Made by a program: the position numbers and the translations under genes. A stretch of DNA of 44,555 nt, taken from a virus. Taxonomy: Duplodnaviria > Heunggongvirae > Uroviricota > Caudoviricetes. The stretch is taken from IMG/VR virus record IMGVR_UViG_2734482571_000013; one strand, given 5' to 3'. The notes beneath the pieces were generated by a model. That model was not told the origin of the DNA, searched no databases, and saw only the letters and a program-made list of their open reading frames with translations. Positions 8,932 to 22,306 of the stretch are shown here, one piece after another; positions within the stretch are counted from its first letter, which is position 1; each line of letters opens with the position of its first letter.

Positions 8932-9789
8932 ATGCTGTTTGTGCTTATTCTAAGCCACCGGGCAGCATCATACGGGGCAATTATGGCCGCATTACCATAC
9001 ATGCAACTGTACATAGCTGATTACCTGGCTGACACCATGCATTTGTCAGCAGAGGAGCATGGTGCGTATTTGTTGCTGATGTTCAATTACTGGCAAACAG
9101 GAAAGCCAATACCTAAAAACAGGCTGGCAAAAATTGCCCGTCTGACTAACGAGCGATGGGCTGATGTTGAACCATCCTTGCAGGAGTTTTTTTGCGATAA
9201 CGGCGAGGAATGGGTGCATCTTCGGATTGAGGAAGATCTGGCATCAGTCAGGGAAAAATTAACCAAAAAATCAGCCGCAGGAAAAGCATCTGTTCAGGCC
9301 AGAAGAAGCAGAAAGGAAGCAGATGTTCAAACAAAACAAGAGAGAAATTTAACAGGTGTTCAAACAGATGTTGAAGTGGTGTTTGAACATGATGTCAACA
9401 CAAAGGCAACTAATAAAGATACAGATAAAGATCTAAAAACAGATCCCCCCCTAAATCCCCCCCGGGGGAATCGAGGTGTCAAAAAGTTTGACCCTCTGGA
9501 TATTGCTTTGCCGAACTGGATTTCTGTCTCGCTTTGGCGTGAGTGGGTTGAATTTCGCCAGGCATTGCGAAAACCGATTCGAACGGAGCAGGGCGCTAAC
9601 GGGGCGATACGGGAGCTGGAAAAATTCCGCCAGCAGGGTTTTTCACCTGAGCAGGTGATTCGACACAGCATCGCCAATGAATACCAGGGCTTGTTCGCGC
9701 CGAAAGGTGTTCGACCTGAGACGTTACTCCGACAGGTTAACACCGTCTCGTTACCGGATAGTGCGATCCCGCCAGGCTTCAGGGGGTAA
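8932..9789 (+). CDS. ydaU: YdaU-like replication protein (DUF1376 family, 285 aa)
   Basis: Position before a DnaC-like gene; sequence consistent with Rac YdaU; alternative start MAALPYM at 8983. Confidence 0.8.
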   Translation: MLFVLILSHRAASYGAIMAALPYMQLYIADYLADTMHLSAEEHGAYLLLMFNYWQTGKPIPKNRLAKIARLTNERWADVEPSLQEFFCDNGEEWVHLRIEEDLASVREKLTKKSAAGKASVQARRSRKEADVQTKQERNLTGVQTDVEVVFEHDVNTKATNKDTDKDLKTDPPLNPPRGNRGVKKFDPLDIALPNWISVSLWREWVEFRQALRKPIRTEQGANGAIRELEKFRQQGFSPEQVIRHSIANEYQGLFAPKGVRPETLLRQVNTVSLPDSAIPPGFRG

Positions 9790-9795
9790 CTGACC

Positions 9796-10542
9796 ATGAA
9801 AAATATTGCGACAGGCGACGTTCTTGAACGTATCCGCAGACTGGCCCCGTCACATGTAACCGCGCCATTCAAGACGGTAGCGGAGTGGCGCGAGTGGCAA
9901 CTTTCCGAAGGCCAGAAACGTTGTGAGGAGATCAACCGTCAGAATCGTCAGTTGCGGGTGGAAAAAATTCTGAATCGCTCTGGCATCCAGCCATTGCACC
10001 GCAAATGCTCGTTTTCGAATTACCAGGTGCAGAACGAAGCGCAGCGATACGCGTTGAGTCAGGCGAAATCCATCGCTGATGAACTGATGACCGGGTGTAC
10101 AAATTTTGCGTTCAGCGGAAAACCTGGTACCGGGAAGAACCACTTAGCGGCAGCTATCGGGAATCGCCTGCTGAAAGACGGTCAGACAGTGATTGTGGTT
10201 ACCGTGGCTGATGTTATGAGTGCCCTGCACGCCAGCTATGACGATGGGCAGTCAGGCGAAAAATTTTTGCGGGAACTATGCGAAGTGGATCTGCTGGTTC
10301 TTGATGAAATTGGCATTCAGCGCGAGACGAAAAACGAGCAGGTGGTGCTGCACCAGATTGTTGATCGCCGGACAGCGTCGATGCGCAGCGTGGGGATGCT
10401 GACAAACCTGAACTATGAGGCCATGAAAACATTGCTCGGCGAGCGGATTATGGATCGCATGACCATGAACGGCGGGCGATGGGTGAATTTTAACTGGGAG
10501 AGCTGGCGTCCGAATGTCGTCCAGCCAGGAATTGAGAAGTAA
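9796..10542 (+). CDS. ydaV: DnaC/IstB-like AAA+ replication helicase loader (248 aa)
   Basis: Walker [16 protein letters not shown] and Walker B LLVLDEIG motifs. Confidence 0.85.
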
Positions 10543-10564
10543 TTTTTACCGGGAGGAAATTTTT

Positions 10565-11326
10565 ATGGAGACTGTTTTTGACGCACTGAAAGCAATGGGA
10601 AAAGCCACATCCATAGAACTTGCTGCGCGACTTGATATCAGTCGTGAAGAAGTGCTGAACGAACTATGGGAACTGAAAAAAGCTGGTTTCGTTGATAAAA
10701 GCGCGTACACCTGGCGTGTGGCTGATAACAACGTTCAGCAGGAACAGCCAATGCAGGCAGAACTGCCGGAAGAAACCACCACGGCAACTGTAGTGAAAAT
10801 CTCAGAGTGCGATTTAACCGCGACGATTGAACAACGCGGACCACAAACGGCGGATGAACTGGCTACGCTGTTCGGTACAACATCCCGCAAAGTTGCTTCA
10901 ACGCTGGCAATGGCAATCAGCAAAGGACGCCTGATTCGCGTAAACCAGAACAGTAAATTTCGTTACTGCATGCCGGGCGATAATTTACCAGCAGAGCCGA
11001 AAGCTGCATCGGTAGCGGAAACTGATGGTAAAGCCTTTCCTCAGCCAGCCGGTGTTGCGTTACCAGTACAGGAAGCGGCAACACAGGAAGATATTAAAAC
11101 AGAAACTGTGGCGGACATTGTGCAGTCGCTGCCATCGTTTACTGAAACGCAAGCGGATGACCTAGTTTTACCATCGCTGCATATGGCAAACCGCGAACTG
11201 CGTCGGGCGAAAAATCATGTCCAGAAGTGGGAGCGAGTCTGCGCCGCGCTGCGGGAGCTGAACAAGCACCGGGATATTGTCCGACAGATTGTCGATTCCT
11301 CCAGTCGTATTGTGTCGGAAAAGTGA
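10565..11326 (+). CDS. Hypothetical protein, YdaW-like (DUF1627-like), acidic C-terminal half
   Basis: GGGAGGA Shine-Dalgarno before ATG 10565; listed ORF extends in frame to 10514 overlapping ydaV. Confidence 0.6.
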
Positions 11327-11341
11327 TTGCCGGAGGCGCTT

Positions 11342-11758
11342 ATGGCAAAAGTTTTTACACAGGAAGAGCGTGAAAAAATTAAGGAGCAGGTTGTTGAGTT
11401 GGTACGCCAGAGTGGGCGCGAGACGTTAAGGCAACTGGAGGCCAAGACAGGTGCGACAAGATATCTGATGAGCATTCTTGCCAGAGAGTTGGTTGCCAGT
11501 GGCGATGTATACAACTCTGGCTATGGGTTATTCCCGTCTGAACAGGCTCGTAAGGATTGGAAAAACGCCCGCAAAAAACTATCCAGGGCAAAGGTGAAAA
11601 AAACGGTTGTGGTTGATCCTGACCTTATCTGGTCATTACCAGACGGAGAAATACGCCGCTATGACAGGCGTCAGAACATAATCTGTCGCGAGTGCCGGAA
11701 GAGTGAAGTTATGAAACGTGTACTGGCATTTTATCAAGGAAATCTTCGGTATTTATAG
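11342..11758 (+). CDS. Hypothetical protein (138 aa)
   Basis: GGAGG Shine-Dalgarno 6 nt before ATG 11342; CxxC near C-terminus (ICRECRK). Confidence 0.5.
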   Translation: MAKVFTQEEREKIKEQVVELVRQSGRETLRQLEAKTGATRYLMSILARELVASGDVYNSGYGLFPSEQARKDWKNARKKLSRAKVKKTVVVDPDLIWSLPDGEIRRYDRRQNIICRECRKSEVMKRVLAFYQGNLRYL

Positions 11759-11896
11759 ACGTTACTAGATCAAAGAGCATTAGTTCATATGTAAATTGAC
11801 ATTTTTCTGGCACAGGGGAGAGCTAGCGTGGTTGTCCGCTTTGTGCCAATAGCGGACATTGCTGGCTCATGGTATGTTAGTTTAAGGAGGCAGGTT

Positions 11897-12919
11897 ATGC
11901 CCTGTATTTCGCTGTGGTATAATAGTTGCGCAATTGATACAAGGGAGCGTTACATCGTGAAAATTGTTTTCGAGGTTAATGGAAAGAAAGTTCCACTAAA
12001 ATCTTTAAAATACATAAGCAAAAAAGATCAACTCGAAGTAATGAAAAACTGGTTCTTTGAAAACTTTGAAGATCCGGCAAATGCTTGTCCGTATGAAAGT
12101 AGAGAAGGTGGCTATGCTTACATATATGGCGGGCCGTATGATGCGAGCGAAGAACTACAATCCATCTTCGGTCAATATGTTAAATCTGAGTATATTGAGG
12201 AATTAGTAGATGAATTACAAACACAATGTTTTGACTGGTCTGGAAACTCAAATAATATAGATGATTGGTACGATGATGATATCTACGACGCTGTAACGTC
12301 TTCCGGTAATCCGTATTTAAAATTCATTGATAATATCGATAAAATAAAAAAACTTGCAAAAGATAAAACTGAACAACAGCAAAAAAACCACTTGCTTAGT
12401 TTGCTCTACACGAATGTTATTACAGCTTTGGAAACGCTTTATGTTGAGCTATTCATTAATTCTATAGAGAAAGATGATGTCTACATAGCCAATTGTATAG
12501 AAAAAGGTAAGACTGAATTTAAAGTAAGCAAAGATATTGCTGCGTTGCCTTTCAAGGGTGAACCCATCGAGAAAATTAGGGGAGAGCTAATCAGGTCAAT
12601 CAAGGAACACTTGATCAGTGCAAGCTGGCATAGCACTAAAAAGGTAATCGACCGCTATGAAGCTACATTCGATATAAAAGTACAAAAAGACTGTCCGATA
12701 GAAGCTATTGAATTGGCAACCCTCAATCGAAATCACTTAGTGCATCGTGGTGGAAAGGATAAAGAAGGGAACCTCGTAGTGATTACAGACCAGGATCTTG
12801 AAACGCTGATTGAAAATGCATCGAACCTGGCAATTATGCTCTACAACAGTTTAAATGTAGCAACGAATAAAACCACCATTTTGCAACCAGATGACAAACC
12901 GTTCATTCATGAATTTTAA
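11897..12919 (+). CDS. Island gene A: uncharacterised protein with C-terminal RNxxxH (HEPN-like) motif, candidate abortive-infection/defence effector (340 aa)
   Basis: AAGGAGG Shine-Dalgarno 6 nt before ATG 11897; alternative starts GTG 11828 and GTG 11957; AT-rich codon usage; motif LATLNRNHLVHRGG near C-terminus; no similarity to phage structural or replication proteins that I recognise. Confidence 0.6.
   Translation: MPCISLWYNSCAIDTRERYIVKIVFEVNGKKVPLKSLKYISKKDQLEVMKNWFFENFEDPANACPYESREGGYAYIYGGPYDASEELQSIFGQYVKSEYIEELVDELQTQCFDWSGNSNNIDDWYDDDIYDAVTSSGNPYLKFIDNIDKIKKLAKDKTEQQQKNHLLSLLYTNVITALETLYVELFINSIEKDDVYIANCIEKGKTEFKVSKDIAALPFKGEPIEKIRGELIRSIKEHLISASWHSTKKVIDRYEATFDIKVQKDCPIEAIELATLNRNHLVHRGGKDKEGNLVVITDQDLETLIENASNLAIMLYNSLNVATNKTTILQPDDKPFIHEF
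11915..11923 (+). promoter_or_regulatory. Extended -10 element TGgTATAAT (possible promoter if island gene A starts at GTG 11957)
   Basis: Exact TGnTATAAT match; AGGGAG at 11943-11948 and in-frame GTG at 11957 lie downstream; conflicts with the alternative start at 11897. Confidence 0.25.
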
Positions 12920-12934
12920 TAGCGCAGGTCATAC

Positions 12935-13936
12935 ATGGATATTCGCACACGAAAGACAAAATTTTTAGAGTCGTTAGATTCAACTGAAGTGATACGCAAA
13001 GCAGTAAGTCTCGCTATAGATTGCATTATTGATAATCATAATAGTAATGAAGATACCCCCTTAGTTATTACCAGCTATGATGATCTCTGTAGAATCCAGG
13101 TGCTAAATTATGTACAGGAGTTTTGCGAAGCTGCATTCCCTGATATGGATGAATATTACTTTAGTCCTAACATACTTCGCATCAACGGCAAGACTAGTGA
13201 AGAAGCTTGTATTAACTTAATTAAACTCTTAAGAAGTACAAAAGGCATGCTATTCTGGTCCGATGCCCCATCGTGGTTCGCTAGCCTCCCCGACGGATTA
13301 TTCCATGTTGTTAACATTGATCAAAAAATCGTTACTCGCGGCCTTAATAAGAAAAACTCTAAGCCGACAATAATCAATAAAGATTACAGTGTAGATACAC
13401 TACTATCAGAGCTATTTTTGAATGGCGCACACATGGAGCAACCCAACGTACACAACGTTTCTGAGGGAAACATGAAGTTCTATGATGAATGCCATGCTGG
13501 ATTAATCAGACCAATACCCGCTCCAATAGGCGCGTCATACGATGAAGAGATCACAATTAATTCTCCAGATTGGCAAAAGCTCGCGTGTGTAGCTTTACGC
13601 CGCTATCAGTCGAAGGAATGTCATGACGGAATGCAATGGGATACAACCGATCATGGTTGGACTGATGTAATCGCGTATCCATTCGTCGAAGAAATACAAT
13701 CAATGGATAATAGTGGTTATCGACAATGTTTAGTTGGGCTGGTCACAATAAACAATTCAAATGCAAATTCTCCGTACCTATCTACCGTTTGGATACATCC
13801 ATTTTATCGCAGGAGAGGGTTATTAAGTAAGTTATGGCCAAAATTACAAGAGTTATATGGAAGTAACTTCGAAATTGAGCGACCTAATGAAAATATGAAA
13901 GCATTTCTGAAAAGTGCGAAACACGCAGATTACTAA
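12935..13936 (+). CDS. Island gene B: uncharacterised protein with GNAT-like C-terminal region (333 aa)
   Basis: Starts 15 nt after gene A stop; C-terminal segment CLVGLVTINN...WIHPFYRRRGLLSKLWPKLQELYG...NMKAFLKSA resembles GNAT acetyl-CoA-binding motifs A/B, but the match is imperfect. Confidence 0.6.
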   Translation: MDIRTRKTKFLESLDSTEVIRKAVSLAIDCIIDNHNSNEDTPLVITSYDDLCRIQVLNYVQEFCEAAFPDMDEYYFSPNILRINGKTSEEACINLIKLLRSTKGMLFWSDAPSWFASLPDGLFHVVNIDQKIVTRGLNKKNSKPTIINKDYSVDTLLSELFLNGAHMEQPNVHNVSEGNMKFYDECHAGLIRPIPAPIGASYDEEITINSPDWQKLACVALRRYQSKECHDGMQWDTTDHGWTDVIAYPFVEEIQSMDNSGYRQCLVGLVTINNSNANSPYLSTVWIHPFYRRRGLLSKLWPKLQELYGSNFEIERPNENMKAFLKSAKHADY

Positions 13937-14119
13937 TTTATGAATCAGTCTGTGGAGTTAGGGTTGGTGTGAACAAGTAGGGTAAGAGCCTCAACGTGAT
14001 GCTATGCCGACCTGCTCCCTGAGAATTCACACAGAAGGCTGCTAGCAATGTCTGCAGATCGCTCAAAGCGGACTAAAATGTTGGCTTGTTTCTGACTTAG
14101 AGCATTTAAGGAAGTGCTG

Positions 14120-14338
14120 GTGGTGACTGGTTGTTGTGTTCCATTTCTACAGAATAAAATCACAGAAACTATACCCAATAGTTGTATTGAATCACTGACG
14201 AGACAGCCTCATATTTATCAGGACTGGTGTGCGTCTAATACAGGGGGTTGTCGTGCTGGTTCTCAAATGTGCGCTGGCTATTGCGGCTGTAATGGCAATT
14301 TATTGTCTTGCTGTTGTTCTTATGGAGCGGCTTTCTGA
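14120..14338 (+). CDS. Possible small Cys-rich peptide (about 72 aa, 14 Cys)
   Basis: ORF with TAAGGAAG upstream of GTG 14120; C-terminal CAGYCGCNGNLLSCCCSYGAAF; could be non-coding TG-rich sequence. Confidence 0.2.
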   Translation: MVTGCCVPFLQNKITETIPNSCIESLTRQPHIYQDWCASNTGGCRAGSQMCAGYCGCNGNLLSCCCSYGAAF

Positions 14339-14497
14339 TTGATTACATACTGGCTAGAAAAAAGGTGTTACCTTGGTTTATCTTTGTCCGGCAAGGTGCG
14401 CTCATTAATCTTAAGTAAATTTATTGCTCAAGTATTCAGATTACTTCTTATGGTTGAAGTCTCCTGTCAATGTAGAACCAATATATTTACAAAAATG

Positions 14498-14527
14498 AGA
14501 CCCGTCGGGGATAGCCCTGCCGGGTCT
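14498..14527. terminator. Stem-loop between convergent genes (possible bidirectional terminator)
   Basis: AGACCCG..CGGGTCT outer arms plus inner CGGGG/CCCTG pairing, A-run upstream and T-rich downstream; sits between plus-strand ORFs and minus-strand YeaR-like gene. Confidence 0.4.
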
Positions 14528-14556
14528 GACTGTTAAAGCATTTTTAATATGATCAT

Positions 14557-14895
14557 CTATTTTTTGGTGCTATAGACTTTTTCGCCCGAAAAGTCTGGAG
14601 CGACCCAAAAGTTAATATTAAACTGAGCATCATCGCTTAGTTCAACACGGTGCCAGTATTGTGGTGGGCTTGTTGCAAAAGCGCCAGCATTAATGACTAC
14701 TTTTATCTCCGGTTCAGTAGCATTCTCATCAGTAAAACCATAATATGTTACAGTGCCTTCCATTACGCACAACTGCCCAAAAACACCTGCTGCTGTATTA
14801 TGATGTGTTAATAACGCTGAAGGTACGTTCTCTTTTGTGAAGAACGGAGTTGAGCGTTTGATTACCCAATCTTTAGGAATTCTCTTGTGTGTCAT
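14557..14895 (-). CDS. DUF1971 protein, YeaR / TehB-N-terminal-like (112 aa)
   Basis: Pattern RSTPFF...VMEGTVTYYGF...AGAFATSPPQYWH...FNINFWVAP parallels E. coli YeaR as I recall it; GGAGGAGG Shine-Dalgarno 5 nt before ATG 14895. Confidence 0.65.
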   Translation of the reverse strand: MTHKRIPKDWVIKRSTPFFTKENVPSALLTHHNTAAGVFGQLCVMEGTVTYYGFTDENATEPEIKVVINAGAFATSPPQYWHRVELSDDAQFNINFWVAPDFSGEKVYSTKK

Positions 14896-15708
14896 AACCA
14901 CCTCCTCCAAAACATGCATTAAAAATGCATCTTTTGGAGGGTTATGTCAAGCTGTTATGAAACACATAATTGATATGTTGATTAGAGGAGAAGATAGAAT
15001 AAATATGGTTGTTTTTCGTATAACTATTTGTTTTACTTTTAGTTTATGCATTCTGTGTGTTAGGAATAAGTTATTAAAGTTTAATCAAAAAATCTCGATG
15101 TAGTCCACATAGATTACTGTTACTGAACCTTATTGTGTGTATTAGTTGTGTTCTGAAATTTCAGCTTAATTATTTATGATGTATTTTTTAACGATAAATA
15201 TTTTCCCAGGATACCTTTACTGTGTATATAAATAAATTATATACGCATAAATAATGTAAAGGCGTCCTTTTAGATATATCTTATCAAATGTTAATGACTT
15301 GAGTGGGAAATATGATTCCAGCAACTTATCATGTGGCTACTTTATAAAAATAATGCCCATATAAAACAACAAGCGAAAAGGATTACGGATAAAAAAGGAG
15401 CGAGATGTGCGAACTTGTTATTTTCCATGTTTAACCACCTTAAATAATTGATGATGACGGGATGATTGCATCTGTAATGCTTTTATTGAAATGTTATGAT
15501 AAAAAAGAACTTTTGCATAACATTAAAATGTAATTTATCTAATCGTTTTTAATAATAAGTGTCGTATTTCTATCCTTGTACCAGCTATTTGATATGTAGT
15601 GTTTGTTCATGCTATGTGGGGCTTTACACCATAGCCAGTTTATTTATACTTTATTCGTCAGCCTGAACAACTGGCATCTGCTGCGCTGCGCCATCGAGAG
15701 ATTGAGAA

Positions 15709-16308
15709 ATGGCGCATATACAACTGGTCAAACAAACCTCTTCTGGTTTACTTCTCCCGGCGACGCCGGAGAGTTGCGATTTTCTGCATCAAATCAAAAT
15801 AGGTGAGTGGATACACGCAGACTTTAAGCGTGTGCGTAACTACGCATTCCACAAGCGTTTTTTCAAACTCCTGCAACTGGGATTCGATTACTGGACTCCG
15901 GTCGGTGGGGCGATCACGCCTCGCGAACGAGAACTGCTGTCTGGTTTCGTTGATTACCTGTGCGAATCAGTTGGTCGGGAACACACGCCAGCCCTGAGTG
16001 ATGCCGCAGAGCAATACCTTAACACCGTTGCGACTCGTAGAACCCGGGATACGGCGTTGCTAAAGTCGTTTGAGGCTTTCCGCGAGTGGGTAACCATTCA
16101 GGCCGGATTTTACACCGAGCATATTTATCCGGACGGTAGCCGTGGGCGTCGGGCAAAATCCATCGCTTTTGCGAATATGGACGAAGTCGAGTTTCAGCAG
16201 GTTTATAAATCTGTACTGAATGTGCTGTGGAACTGGATTCTGTTCCGTAAATTCTCCTCTCAGGAGGAAGTTGAAAATGTGGCCGCACAACTACTGGAGT
16301 TTGCGTAA
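15709..16308 (+). CDS. DUF1367-family phage protein (nin-region type, 199 aa)
   Basis: Position upstream of ybcO-like and Q genes; TAATG coupling to next gene. Confidence 0.6.
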   Translation: MAHIQLVKQTSSGLLLPATPESCDFLHQIKIGEWIHADFKRVRNYAFHKRFFKLLQLGFDYWTPVGGAITPRERELLSGFVDYLCESVGREHTPALSDAAEQYLNTVATRRTRDTALLKSFEAFREWVTIQAGFYTEHIYPDGSRGRRAKSIAFANMDEVEFQQVYKSVLNVLWNWILFRKFSSQEEVENVAAQLLEFA

Positions 16309-17590: not shown

Positions 17591-18122
17591 GGGCTGGTTT
17601 ATTGTATGCCAAATGATTATTAAAAAGGTTGTGTTAATAACAAGATCCGAAATAATATGCCTGCATATTTTTATCTTGCTTATATTCTGCATATTGTGCA
17701 TAGCAGGCTCATCCCTGCAATCAAAACTGTATGATGAGTATTTTTTGTTTTCCTTTTTTCCAGTCATCTGATGATGACCTGCTTCTTTTTAATCCGGATC
17801 GACATCAGTTTTTTAAGATAATTCCTGCGAGTTATATGCATAAATGCCACAAACTCCGCATTTTATGTGGTTGGGAGTTGCCGGGCGCGCAGTGAGTTTG
17901 CTAAGAAAACTCCTGCATGGTGAATCCCCCTGTGCGGTGGGGTGATACCATTAACCTTTTCTGTCGCCGACAGGTATCACGAACATTTTGTTCACCGGGA
18001 GGCACCCGGCACCATGCACTTCAATAGATTCTCTCCACATTATGGATATTCTTTCAGAATATCCCACGCAGACTTTGTGTAAATGTTAACAAATGTGCGT
18101 TTTATTTGATCTGATTCGCTGT

Positions 18123-19623: not shown

Positions 19624-20120
19624 TGCCTCCATCATTACGAAAAGTCGTTGCTGCTGCTATTGGTGGCGGAGCAATTGCTATAGCATCAGTGTTAATCACT
19701 GGCCCAAGTGGTAACGATGGTCTGGAAGGTGTCAGCTACATACCATACAAAGATATTGTTGGTGTATGGACTGTATGTCACGGGCATACAGGAAAAGACA
19801 TCATGCTCGGTAAAACGTATACCAAAGCAGAATGCAAAACACTCTTGAATAAAGACCTTGCCACTGTCGCCAGACAAATTAACCCGTACATCAAAGTCGA
19901 TATACCGGAAACAACGCGCGGCGCTCTTTACTCGTTCGTTTACAACGTGGGTGCTGGTAATTTCAGAACATCGACGCTTCTTCGCAAAATAAACCAGGGC
20001 GATATCAAAGGCGCATGTGATCAGCTACGTCGCTGGACATATGCTGGCGGTAAGCAATGGAAAGGTCTCATGACTCGTCGTGAGATTGAGCGTGAAGTCT
20101 GTTTGTGGGGTCAACAATGA
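19623..20120 (+). CDS. SAR endolysin (R21-like lysozyme, 165 aa)
   Basis: N-terminal Gly/Ala-rich weakly hydrophobic SAR segment [20 protein letters not shown] followed by lysozyme domain; downstream of pinholin. Confidence 0.85.
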
Positions 20121-20574
20121 GCAGGGTAACCGCGATTATCTCCGCTCTGGTTATNNNNNNNNNNNNNNNNNNNNNNNNNNNNNNNNNNNNNNNNNNNNNN
20201 NNNNNNNNNNNNNNNNNNNNNNNNNNNNNNNNNNNNNNNNNNNNNNNNNNNNNNNNNNNNNNNNNNNNNNNNNNNNNNNNNNNNNNNNNNTTAATGCACT
20301 CGATGCTAAATACACGAAGGAGTTAGCTGATGCGAAAGCTGAAAATGATGCTCTGCGTGATGATGTTGCCGCTGGTCGTCGTCGGTTGCACATCAAAGCA
20401 GTCTGTCAGTCAGTGCGTGAAGCCACCACCGCCTCCGGCGTGGATAATGCAGCCTCCCCCCGACTGGCAGACACCGCTGAACGGGATTATTTCACCCTCC
20501 GGGAACGACTGGTAATGATGCAGGCCCAACTTGAAGGTGCTCAGCAATACATAACCGAGCAGTGTTTAAAGTAA
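20117..20574 (+). CDS. Rz i-spanin (interrupted by assembly gap; frame differs across gap)
   Basis: N-terminus [12 protein letters not shown] before gap; after gap ...[40 protein letters not shown]...; ATGA overlap with endolysin stop. Confidence 0.7.
20155..20290. other. Assembly gap (136 N) inside Rz
   Basis: Run of N. Confidence 1.
20330..20515 (+). CDS. Rz1 o-spanin lipoprotein embedded in +1 frame of Rz (61 aa)
   Basis: Signal peptide with lipobox VVGC, proline-rich mature region [15 protein letters not shown]. Confidence 0.75.
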   Translation: MRKLKMMLCVMMLPLVVVGCTSKQSVSQCVKPPPPPAWIMQPPPDWQTPLNGIISPSGNDW

Positions 20575-20711
20575 AATCTTAACTACAATATGATTCATTT
20601 TGATGATTGTTTCATAAGGAACAGTGAAGTAAGATCTAAGAGGAGTTAAATTTTATACAGTATAATCATAATATTGCAGCAAGGTGGTTATAATTGAAAG
20701 AATATTTAGAT

Positions 20712-22169
20712 ATGAATACATCTCATGTAAGAGTTGTTACTCATATGTGTGGGTTCCTGGTTTGGCTCTATAGTCTTTCAATGTTGCCACCAATGGTTGT
20801 AGCATTGTTTTATAAAGAAAAAAGCCTGTTCGTTTTCTTTATAACTTTCGTTATATTTTTTTGCATTGGTGGCGGAGCGTGGTATACAACTAAGAAATCT
20901 GGCATTCAATTACGTACCCGTGATGGGTTTATTATAATTGTAATGTTTTGGATTTTGTTTTCTGTTATTAGTGCATTCCCTTTATGGATTGACTCAGAAC
21001 TTAATTTAACGTTCATTGATGCTCTGTTTGAAGGGGTTTCTGGAATAACAACAACAGGAGCAACTGTAATTGATGATGTTAGTTCATTACCTCGGGCATA
21101 TTTGTACTATCGGTCACAGTTAAATTTTATAGGTGGTTTAGGAGTTATTGTTCTGGCGGTTGCAGTATTGCCATTATTGGGTATTGGTGGTGCAAAGCTT
21201 TATCAGTCAGAAATGCCGGGGCCATTTAAGGATGACAAACTCACTCCCCGCCTGGCCGATACGTCACGGACACTGTGGATAACTTATTCTTTATTAGGTA
21301 TTGCTTGTATTGTCTGTTATAGACTTGCAGGAATGCCTTTGTTTGATGCTATTTGTCACGGGATTTCCACAGTTTCGCTTGGTGGTTTCTCAACTCATAG
21401 CGAGAGTATCGGATATTTTAATAACTATTTGGTTGAGCTGGTGGCTGGTTCTTTTTCCCTGCTATCGGCTTTCAACTTCACTCTTTGGTATATTGTTATT
21501 AGCAGAAAAACGATAAAACCTTTAATCAGAGATATTGAACTTCGTTTCTTTCTGTTAATAGCCTTAGGGGTGATCATTGTTACCTCTTTCCAGGTCTGGC
21601 ATATAGGTATGTATGACTTGCATGGAAGTTTTATTCATTCGTTTTTTCTTGCCAGCTCCATGCTCACTGATAATGGTTTAGCTACGCAGGATTATGCAAA
21701 CTGGCCCACGCACACGATAGTGTTTTTGCTGTTGTCAAGTTTCTTTGGGGGATGTATAGGTTCAACCTGTGGTGGAATTAAGTCACTTCGATTTCTTATA
21801 CTTTTCAAACAAAGCAAACACGAGATAAATCAGCTTTCTCATCCCAGAGCGTTGTTGAGTGTAAATGTAGGAGGGAAGATAGTTACAGATCGTGTAATGA
21901 GGTCTGTATGGAGTTTCTTTTTTCTTTATACTCTCTTCACGGTGTTTTTTATACTGGTGTTAAATGGTATGGGATATGATTTTCTTACATCATTTGCAAC
22001 AGTGGCTGCATGTATTAATAATATGGGATTAGGTTTTGGGGCTACTGCATCGTCATTCGGAGTGCTTAATGACATTGCAAAATATTTAATGTGCATAGCT
22101 ATGATTCTTGGTCGCCTTGAAATTTATCCTGTTATTATATTGTTTTCAGGTTTTTTTTGGCGCTCCTAA
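20712..22169 (+). CDS. trkG: TrkG potassium uptake transporter (Trk family, 485 aa from MNTSHVRV)
   Basis: Polytopic membrane protein; translation matches Rac TrkG as recalled; AT-rich relative to flanking phage genes. Confidence 0.85.
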   Translation: MNTSHVRVVTHMCGFLVWLYSLSMLPPMVVALFYKEKSLFVFFITFVIFFCIGGGAWYTTKKSGIQLRTRDGFIIIVMFWILFSVISAFPLWIDSELNLTFIDALFEGVSGITTTGATVIDDVSSLPRAYLYYRSQLNFIGGLGVIVLAVAVLPLLGIGGAKLYQSEMPGPFKDDKLTPRLADTSRTLWITYSLLGIACIVCYRLAGMPLFDAICHGISTVSLGGFSTHSESIGYFNNYLVELVAGSFSLLSAFNFTLWYIVISRKTIKPLIRDIELRFFLLIALGVIIVTSFQVWHIGMYDLHGSFIHSFFLASSMLTDNGLATQDYANWPTHTIVFLLLSSFFGGCIGSTCGGIKSLRFLILFKQSKHEINQLSHPRALLSVNVGGKIVTDRVMRSVWSFFFLYTLFTVFFILVLNGMGYDFLTSFATVAACINNMGLGFGATASSFGVLNDIAKYLMCIAMILGRLEIYPVIILFSGFFWRS

Positions 22170-22306
22170 TATATGGCTGATTTATAATTGTGAGTTTAAT
22201 ATTATGTTGACTCACTCATTGATCCAATACCTAACTTTACCAGCAACACCTCCGCCCCCAGTAGCACTGGCTGCTGGGGTGCGTTTTATTCATAAAGCAA
22301 GGCTGT

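Follow-up and report, generated by a model that had tools for sequence, protein, structure and literature searches.

The locus analyzed here corresponds to DS-33 (working name "GNAT"), a pair consisting of WP_014639476.1 and WP_000354965.1 that the DefensePredictor paper (Science 2026, PMC13092281) flags as defensive and replicated in its supplementary tables. The locus itself comprises two neighboring genes, gene A encoding a HEPN protein and gene B encoding a GNAT-fold protein, in a stretch of viral DNA of 44,555 nucleotides (IMG/VR record IMGVR_UViG_2734482571_000013). This whole stretch is referred to as the window; by its annotation, it is an E. coli Rac-like lambdoid prophage. A second close system is aRES, a validated stand-alone defense which causes growth arrest on T7 infection and whose family is defined by hits to both PF18870 and a Pfam model of the RES domain, printed as PF00808 (Osterman et al., bioRxiv 10.64898/2026.01.28.702374).

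Like aRES, gene A encodes a stand-alone two-domain defense protein with a predicted PF18870 domain and protects against T7. The effector of aRES is a RES NAD+ phosphorylase, whereas that of gene A is a HEPN domain; since a RES domain is missing and the C-terminal domain is HEPN, gene A was not counted as a member of aRES.

Further systems share single domains with the pair. PD-T4-2 subunit B, PD-T4-5, PD-T7-3 and ApeA carry the PF18735 HEPN subfamily also seen in homologs of gene A, but differ from gene A in N-terminal domain and gene context, and assignment to any of them was rejected, as neither gene A nor the 64 family members gave a relevant PADLOC match. HepS (Gifsy-1 prophage) and Tha (S. 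aureus prophages) are prophage-encoded single HEPN defense proteins whose activators are phage tail proteins; they have no more than the HEPN core in common with gene A. In the type VII toxin-antitoxin pair HepT/MntA, the partner is an MNT nucleotidyltransferase, whereas the DS-33 partner has a GNAT fold and is not needed for viability, for which reasons membership was rejected. The GNAT toxins TacT, AtaT and ItaT are small single-domain proteins of ~160-180 amino acids (aa) with an adjacent RHH-type antitoxin. They have the fold in common with gene B; in contrast, gene B encodes 333 aa including an N-terminal domain of 200 aa and has no conserved small partner, and it was not assigned to these toxin-antitoxin systems on grounds of size, architecture and the lack of such a partner.

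The gene pair is DS-33

Gene A is identical to DS-33A (320/320 residues) and gene B agrees with DS-33B in 332/333 residues, the sole difference being P289L. The clone tested carries L289 and the window P289, which is the consensus and the common allele. The published contig (coordinates 6922-7884 and 7900-8901) has the two genes in the same order and likewise 15 nt apart. The pair is thus already described, contrary to the first-pass annotation, which had been made from the sequence alone and had proposed a candidate for a new system. Searches of main texts by accession and keyword gave no match, and the pair was found in supplementary tables only; in the paper, DS-33 appears in tables and figures, with no mechanism and no main-text discussion (PMC13092281).

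Protection was taken from Table S7 of the same paper, which lists spot assays as -log10 of the efficiency of plating (EOP). Where three values are given for the wild type, the first is from the primary screen, for which the table holds no T5 row for DS-33. The wild-type pair reached 3.0, 3.8 and 2.6 for T7, 3.5, 3.3 and 2.4 for T3, 2.3, 4.0 and 2.0 for Bas67, 4.7, 5.0 and 5.9 for Bas26, and 0.8 and 0.1 for T5; plating of the first four phages is lowered by 2-6 logs. With the HEPN gene deleted, the values fell to ~0 for T7, T3 and Bas67, to 0.3-0.5 for Bas26 and to 0.5 and 0.1 for T5. The substitution R258A gave 0.5-0.8 (T7), -0.3 to 0.3 (T3), 0-0.5 (Bas67), 0.4-0.7 (Bas26) and 0.4 and 0.3 (T5), so that either change abolishes protection. 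Deletion of the GNAT gene left protection intact or stronger (T7 4.8 and 4.3, T3 3.3 and 3.3, Bas67 4.0 and 3.3, Bas26 5.0 and 4.9, T5 1.7 and 0.5). Phage lambda is absent among the DS-33 rows in parts 1, 6 and 7 of the table (all values PMC13092281).

From these values it follows that the measured defense requires the HEPN gene, which also suffices for it as long as the catalytic arginine is present, and that the GNAT gene is not needed for the defense measured so far, which refers to the L289 allele. The defense role proposed from the sequence is thereby borne out. The locus is read here as a DS-33 cargo (moron) cassette of a Rac-like lambdoid prophage, placed between its replication and nin/Q genes, with gene A as the working defense protein; the probability of this reading as a whole, cargo status and the mode of action proposed below included, is put at roughly 0.8.

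Domain structure of gene A

The C-terminal domain of gene A is modeled as an all-alpha, up-and-down helical bundle as in the HEPN superfamily (AlphaFold2 (AF2) model, mean predicted local distance difference test (pLDDT) 89). Within its segment LNRNHLVHRGG, the residues of the R-x4-H signature are encoded at 12728-12730 (R258) and 12743-12745 (H263). R258, H263 and R264 are invariant in 64 sequences, down to 26% identity, and so are W224-H225 and E159. The Pfam family PF18735 (RiboL-PSP-HEPN) matches 27/64 homologs at E<1e-3, and its cut-off of 28.4 bits is passed by the homologs P0101 (36.1 bits) and P0061 (28.5 bits); gene A itself has no match to this family at E≤1. The best remote match of gene A reported for HHblits is PD-T4-2_B, with a probability of 96.1 over 55% of the protein (PMC13092281). 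The first-pass annotation had recognized the HEPN signature in gene A, and the invariance of the motif, the PF18735 matches of homologs and the loss of defense in R258A all agree with it.

For the N-terminal domain, PF18870 (HEPN/RES N-terminal domain 1) matches aa 26-92 with 21.8-22.2 bits (E 2e-4; gathering cut-off 27.4 bits). The family is matched by 43/64 homologs at E<1e-3, some of which pass the gathering score. In the alignment, the motif WF..NFEDP...PYESREGGY.YIYGGPY is nearly invariant. The model has a pLDDT of 83-97 in most blocks of 10 residues, with dips to 67-78 near residues 41-60 and 101-110. The domain is presumed to have a sensor or regulatory role. Both N-terminal domains had been left unassigned before; this no longer holds for gene A, whose domain is assigned, by way of its homologs, to the family also found in aRES, and still holds for gene B, which gave no match in Pfam, NCBIfam or PADLOC.

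When the two proteins and their families were scanned with PADLOC, no meaningful match resulted, and NCBIfam gave none; the PDB sequence searches with the family profiles of genes A and B were without match. In PHROGs, only full-length families of unknown function were hit (phrog_17908 and phrog_16994).

The N-terminal domain is modular, since the same domain is found joined to a PIN domain, to a hydrophobic tail and to RES. The PIN fusion is P0117 (PF18870, 28.7 bits), and among the proteins with a hydrophobic tail 3 of the 4 scanned matched PF18870. A group of proteins of ~260-440 aa on IMG/VR viral contigs (L072-L081) is similar to the N-terminal domain of gene A; beyond this part they have an acidic linker and a conserved G-H-N-x-P-P motif, and their C-terminus is a hydrophobic tail with W or F as last residue. 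A HEPN domain is missing except in L080, where an open reading frame (ORF) contains RNHIVHRNG. Possibly these proteins represent a form of this sensor architecture that acts at the membrane. At another locus (L084:5431-6591), a RiboL-PSP-HEPN domain is fused to HEPN/Toprim N-terminal domain 1 (PF18871, 93.5 bits); the same HEPN subfamily therefore combines with alternative N-terminal modules.

Separability of genes A and B

Of 5426 complete E. coli genomes, 205 contain the cassette, with both of its genes annotated as hypothetical; it was not found in the deposited phage collection. For the comparison of gene neighborhoods, 100 loci were fetched and the partner was sought within 6-8 kb. Adjacency of the two genes is confined to loci whose A has 86% or more identity to the window copy, namely those of E. 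coli, Serratia grimesii and Aeromonas caviae; the cassette of the latter lies in a mobilizable island and adjoins SIR2/cREC genes. About 25 loci have a gene A homolog (≤74% identity) without B, among them a Dickeya locus beside ParE/HTH and integrase genes, an Aeromonas prophage end, an integrative and conjugative element (ICE) and many viral contigs. Gene A is regarded as stand-alone because of these homologs. Conversely, 12 loci have a gene B homolog (≤86% identity) without A, including Rahnella at 86%; B neighbors at such loci were RadC/antirestriction and CbeA genes, an ICE DUF4400 gene, HigBA, an Abi_2 gene and, directly downstream in one case, a SIR2_2 protein. Hidden Markov model searches of the neighbors at A-only and B-only loci revealed no cryptic partner. 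The two genes are separable across genomes, and gene B is most likely separable accessory cargo which travels with A in this lineage.

Two neighborhoods are recorded separately. In a Psychrosphaera metagenome-assembled genome (L027:10-2473), a gene B homolog is followed, after a gap of ~15 nt, by a gene for a 504-aa SIR2_2-domain protein (a defense-type NADase domain), so that the GNAT-fold protein has another kind of partner there. On five viral contigs (L063, L067, L069, L071 and L085), distant gene A homologs of ~27-29% identity are preceded by conserved large plus-strand ORFs of ~527, 420 and 187 aa and followed by likewise conserved ORFs of ~322-328 aa (5/5) and 131 aa (4/5), which are unrelated to gene B.

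That HEPN and GNAT proteins form an obligate two-component system in which both are required, a strict form of the pair suggested from the sequence, would be in line with their tight linkage and apparent co-transcription and with the fact that the DefensePredictor paper cloned and named both genes as one system. This view is largely refuted: defense is full or better after deletion of the GNAT gene and lost after deletion of the HEPN gene or with R258A, and most lineages carry each gene without the other, as the A-only and B-only loci document.

A toxin-antitoxin or addiction module which stabilizes the prophage, with a HEPN toxin, a GNAT antitoxin and phage defense as a side effect, is likewise very improbable. 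MG1655 tolerates a plasmid with gene A from which the GNAT gene has been deleted and is still defended by it, and since this strain is viable, A needs no antitoxin. Moreover, homologs of A are typically solitary, with no conserved small neighbor, and gene B is unlike known antitoxins in the Pfam, PADLOC and NCBIfam scans. A HEPN toxin-antitoxin assignment was rejected for the viability of the deletion strain and for the missing pairing at the A-only and B-only loci.

Gene B and the P289 allele

The C-terminal domain of gene B is predicted to adopt the GNAT alpha/beta fold. Against PF00583, gene B scores 19.9 bits (cut-off 20.7) and three homologs score 27.0, 26.2 and 22.0 bits. The GNAT-like C-terminus noted before agrees with the predicted fold and with the homologs which pass the cut-off. 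At the position of the acetyl-CoA pyrophosphate loop, the segment HPFYRRRG (13796-13819) is found, and the loop of the window reads R292-R-R-G-L-L. Among 44 gene B sequences, H288, P289, R292 and Y308-G309 are invariant, while G295, the usual glycine of the pyrophosphate loop, varies. The invariance of Y308-G309 is compatible with a catalytic tyrosine and points to a GNAT that may be catalytically competent. A phmmer search with the N-terminal domain of gene B against 1.84 billion representatives returned 21 proteins only: family members of full length (329-346 aa), short fragments and a single protein of 570 aa (P0196, ten short repeated matches), none of them with a recognizably different architecture for this domain.

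The P289 allele of the window occurs in at least 1000 contigs and the L289 allele in 31; P289 is also found in 41/41 loci. The dispensability of the GNAT gene was measured with L289, i.e., with an allele mutated at an invariant residue, and the published result may thus rest on a defective allele. An intact P289 GNAT could modulate gene A and serve as its brake or tuner, e.g., if it acetylates A itself or the RNA or protein on which A acts, much as MntA modifies the HEPN toxin HepT, or it could widen the phage range. In favor of this, the 15 nt between A and B are kept in E. coli, Serratia and Aeromonas alike, the only allele tested is a rare one with the change beside the CoA loop, Y308-G309 would fit an active enzyme, and without the GNAT gene, protection was higher by 1.0 and 1.7 logs for T7 in the two replicates and was also higher for T3 and Bas67 in one replicate (PMC13092281). 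On the other hand, most A and most B homologs have no partner, including the B of Rahnella, and the deletion strain is viable. The DefensePredictor log-odds are 1.08 for gene B versus 9.45 for gene A (PMC13092281), and the differences in EOP, small and based on spot assays, are possibly expression artifacts of the deletion. Modulation by gene B is therefore considered possible but doubtful. The same holds, at about the same low level, for the broader notion that the P289 GNAT is a functional partner which tunes or restrains the HEPN effector or adds a second activity, the reported dispensability being that of a crippled minority allele.

Start codon and putative promoter region of gene A

The first-pass annotation had placed the start of gene A at ATG 11897, with AAGGAGG as ribosome-binding site. 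Both elements are present in the sequence (AAGGAGG at 11884-11890), but 63/63 homologs start at the position matching GTG 11957 in the alignment, and the RefSeq annotation (WP_014639476.1, 320 aa) begins there, too. In an alignment of the upstream DNA with the Serratia and Aeromonas copies, neither ATG 11897 nor AAGGAGG is conserved in the Aeromonas cassette, whereas the promoter-like TGGTATAAT and the Shine-Dalgarno sequence AAGGGAG (11941-11947) ahead of GTG 11957 are. The earlier start and ribosome-binding site are probably wrong, and ATG 11897 would lie in the promoter region of the cassette, outside the coding part. The extended -10 element TGGTATAAT presumably functions as promoter. In a consensus scan of 11600-15800, promoter and terminator sites were no more numerous than in shuffled sequence; the scan missed the extended -10 element because its -35 is weak.

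Cassette and prophage context

The window begins with intR, xisR, ralR/RalA, recET, kilR, sieB, the immunity genes, ydaSTUV, DUF1627 and DUF977. Then follow gene A, gene B and a reverse-strand DUF1971 gene, and beyond it nin/Q-like DUF1367/1364/1133, lysis genes, trkG and terminase genes. The two linked ORFs of the first-pass annotation between replication and nin/Q genes are found as given, gene A with its longest ORF at 11828-12919 and gene B at 12935-13936 on the same strand, separated by 15 nt (12920-12934). Its remarks on base composition were also correct: G+C is 0.361 in gene A and 0.391 in gene B versus 0.498 in the replication genes (8932-11758) and 0.459 in the whole window, and the cassette (11897-13965) with 0.379 is among the lowest 2% of equal-sized windows of the stretch.

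Compared with the Aeromonas loci (L013 and L014), conserved DNA extends from ~11897 to ~13965; compared with Serratia (L018), it reaches ~11833 on the left and ~14070 on the right. The slot 3' of the DUF977 gene is occupied by other cargo in other lambdoid prophages, e.g., QueH and HokD or other hypotheticals. Cargo status is assumed because of the low G+C, the variable slot and the conservation of a cassette with its own promoter region across genera, and the horizontal acquisition suspected earlier is supported. The cassette is common to E. coli Rac-like prophages, S. grimesii and the A. caviae mobilizable island. All features are listed in Table 1.

Table 1. Coordinates of the features of the A+B cassette in the window.
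Feature	Position	Strand	Evidence
Mobile cassette of genes A and B with its own promoter region	11897..13965	+	DNA conservation, low G+C
Promoter-like extended -10 element TGGTATAAT	11915..11923	+	Read from sequence; Aeromonas form TGATACAAT
Shine-Dalgarno AAGGGAG, 9-nt spacer, GTG start of gene A (11957)	11941..11959	+	Homolog N-termini, RefSeq WP_014639476.1
Gene A (DS-33A, WP_014639476.1, 320 aa), stand-alone HEPN defense effector	11957..12919	+	100% identity to tested DS-33A
N-terminal alpha+beta domain of A, aa 1-~115, HEPN/RES N-terminal domain 1 (PF18870)	11957..12301	+	Pfam, motif, AF2
HEPN domain of A, aa ~119-308, RiboL-PSP-HEPN type	12311..12880	+	
Catalytic R-x4-H motif R258 N H L V H263	12728..12745	+	Invariant in 64 sequences; R258A result
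Gene B (DS-33B homolog, WP_000354966.1, 333 aa), N-terminal alpha/beta domain and C-terminal GNAT fold	12935..13936	+	
N-terminal domain of B, aa 1-~200, no known family	12935..13534	+	No Pfam, NCBIfam or PADLOC match
GNAT-fold domain of B, aa ~205-333	13547..13933	+	
P289 codon (13799-13801) and R292-R-R-G295 loop (13808-13819), equivalent of the acetyl-CoA pyrophosphate loop	13799..13819	+	

Some further regions of the window were noted. The gap of 620 bp 3' of gene B (13937-14556) holds no annotated gene; its first ~130 bp are kept in the Serratia copy and not in that of Aeromonas. Between the reverse-strand DUF1971 gene (14557-14919) and the nin-like DUF1367 gene, 790 bp without annotated gene (14920-15708) have 30.5% G+C (0.27-0.31 in windows of 400 bp) and match no Rfam family. 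The second-lowest G+C block of the window (0.36) is the trkG region at ~20050-22200, with a prophage-carried gene for the TrkG potassium transporter. Two small RNAs (sRNAs) exceed the Rfam gathering score, namely the RalA antitoxin of the type I toxin-antitoxin pair RalR/RalA (1557-1735, 225 bits) and STnc100 (17885-18071, 86.6 bits) downstream of the Q-like gene.

Proposed mode of action

In the preferred reading, the DS-33 cassette would protect the lysogen against other phages, the working part being gene A, which would combine HEPN/RES N-terminal domain 1 and a RiboL-PSP-type HEPN ribonuclease domain in one polypeptide. Transcribed from its own promoter in the lysogen, the A protein would stay inactive until infection by T7-like and some other phages, whereupon the N-terminal domain would sense the infection or pass its signal on. 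In the next step, the HEPN domain, whose R-x4-H site is probably a composite one formed in a dimer, would cleave RNA and stop translation, and the phage would fail to produce progeny because of growth arrest or abortive infection.

Several points weigh against this reading. Gene A is below the Pfam cut-offs, so that the domain calls are those of its homologs and of a predicted fold, and a Foldseek search of the AF2 model against the PDB gave no match. That gene A acts as a ribonuclease is inferred, with the loss of defense in R258A as indirect evidence, and so are its RNA target, the trigger, a sensor function for the N-terminal domain and an abortive outcome. The A+B unit is kept with its spacing across three genera, which argues for some shared selection, and a role for the common P289 allele is conceivable, as dispensability was measured with L289.

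Implications

A real anti-phage locus was picked out here from raw sequence alone; the locus itself had been found, cloned and mutated in 2026 as DS-33. The present analysis adds a corrected start and a putative promoter for gene A and evidence that the working unit is a stand-alone protein of HEPN/RES N-terminal domain 1 and HEPN. It also adds that the published test of the GNAT partner used a rare allele only, one with a substitution at an invariant residue. If the P289 GNAT proved to be a functional partner, an acyltransferase would control a HEPN nuclease here, a combination not known among described defense systems. The reuse of the PF18870 domain with RES, PIN and hydrophobic-tail C-termini makes it a candidate for a shared infection sensor.

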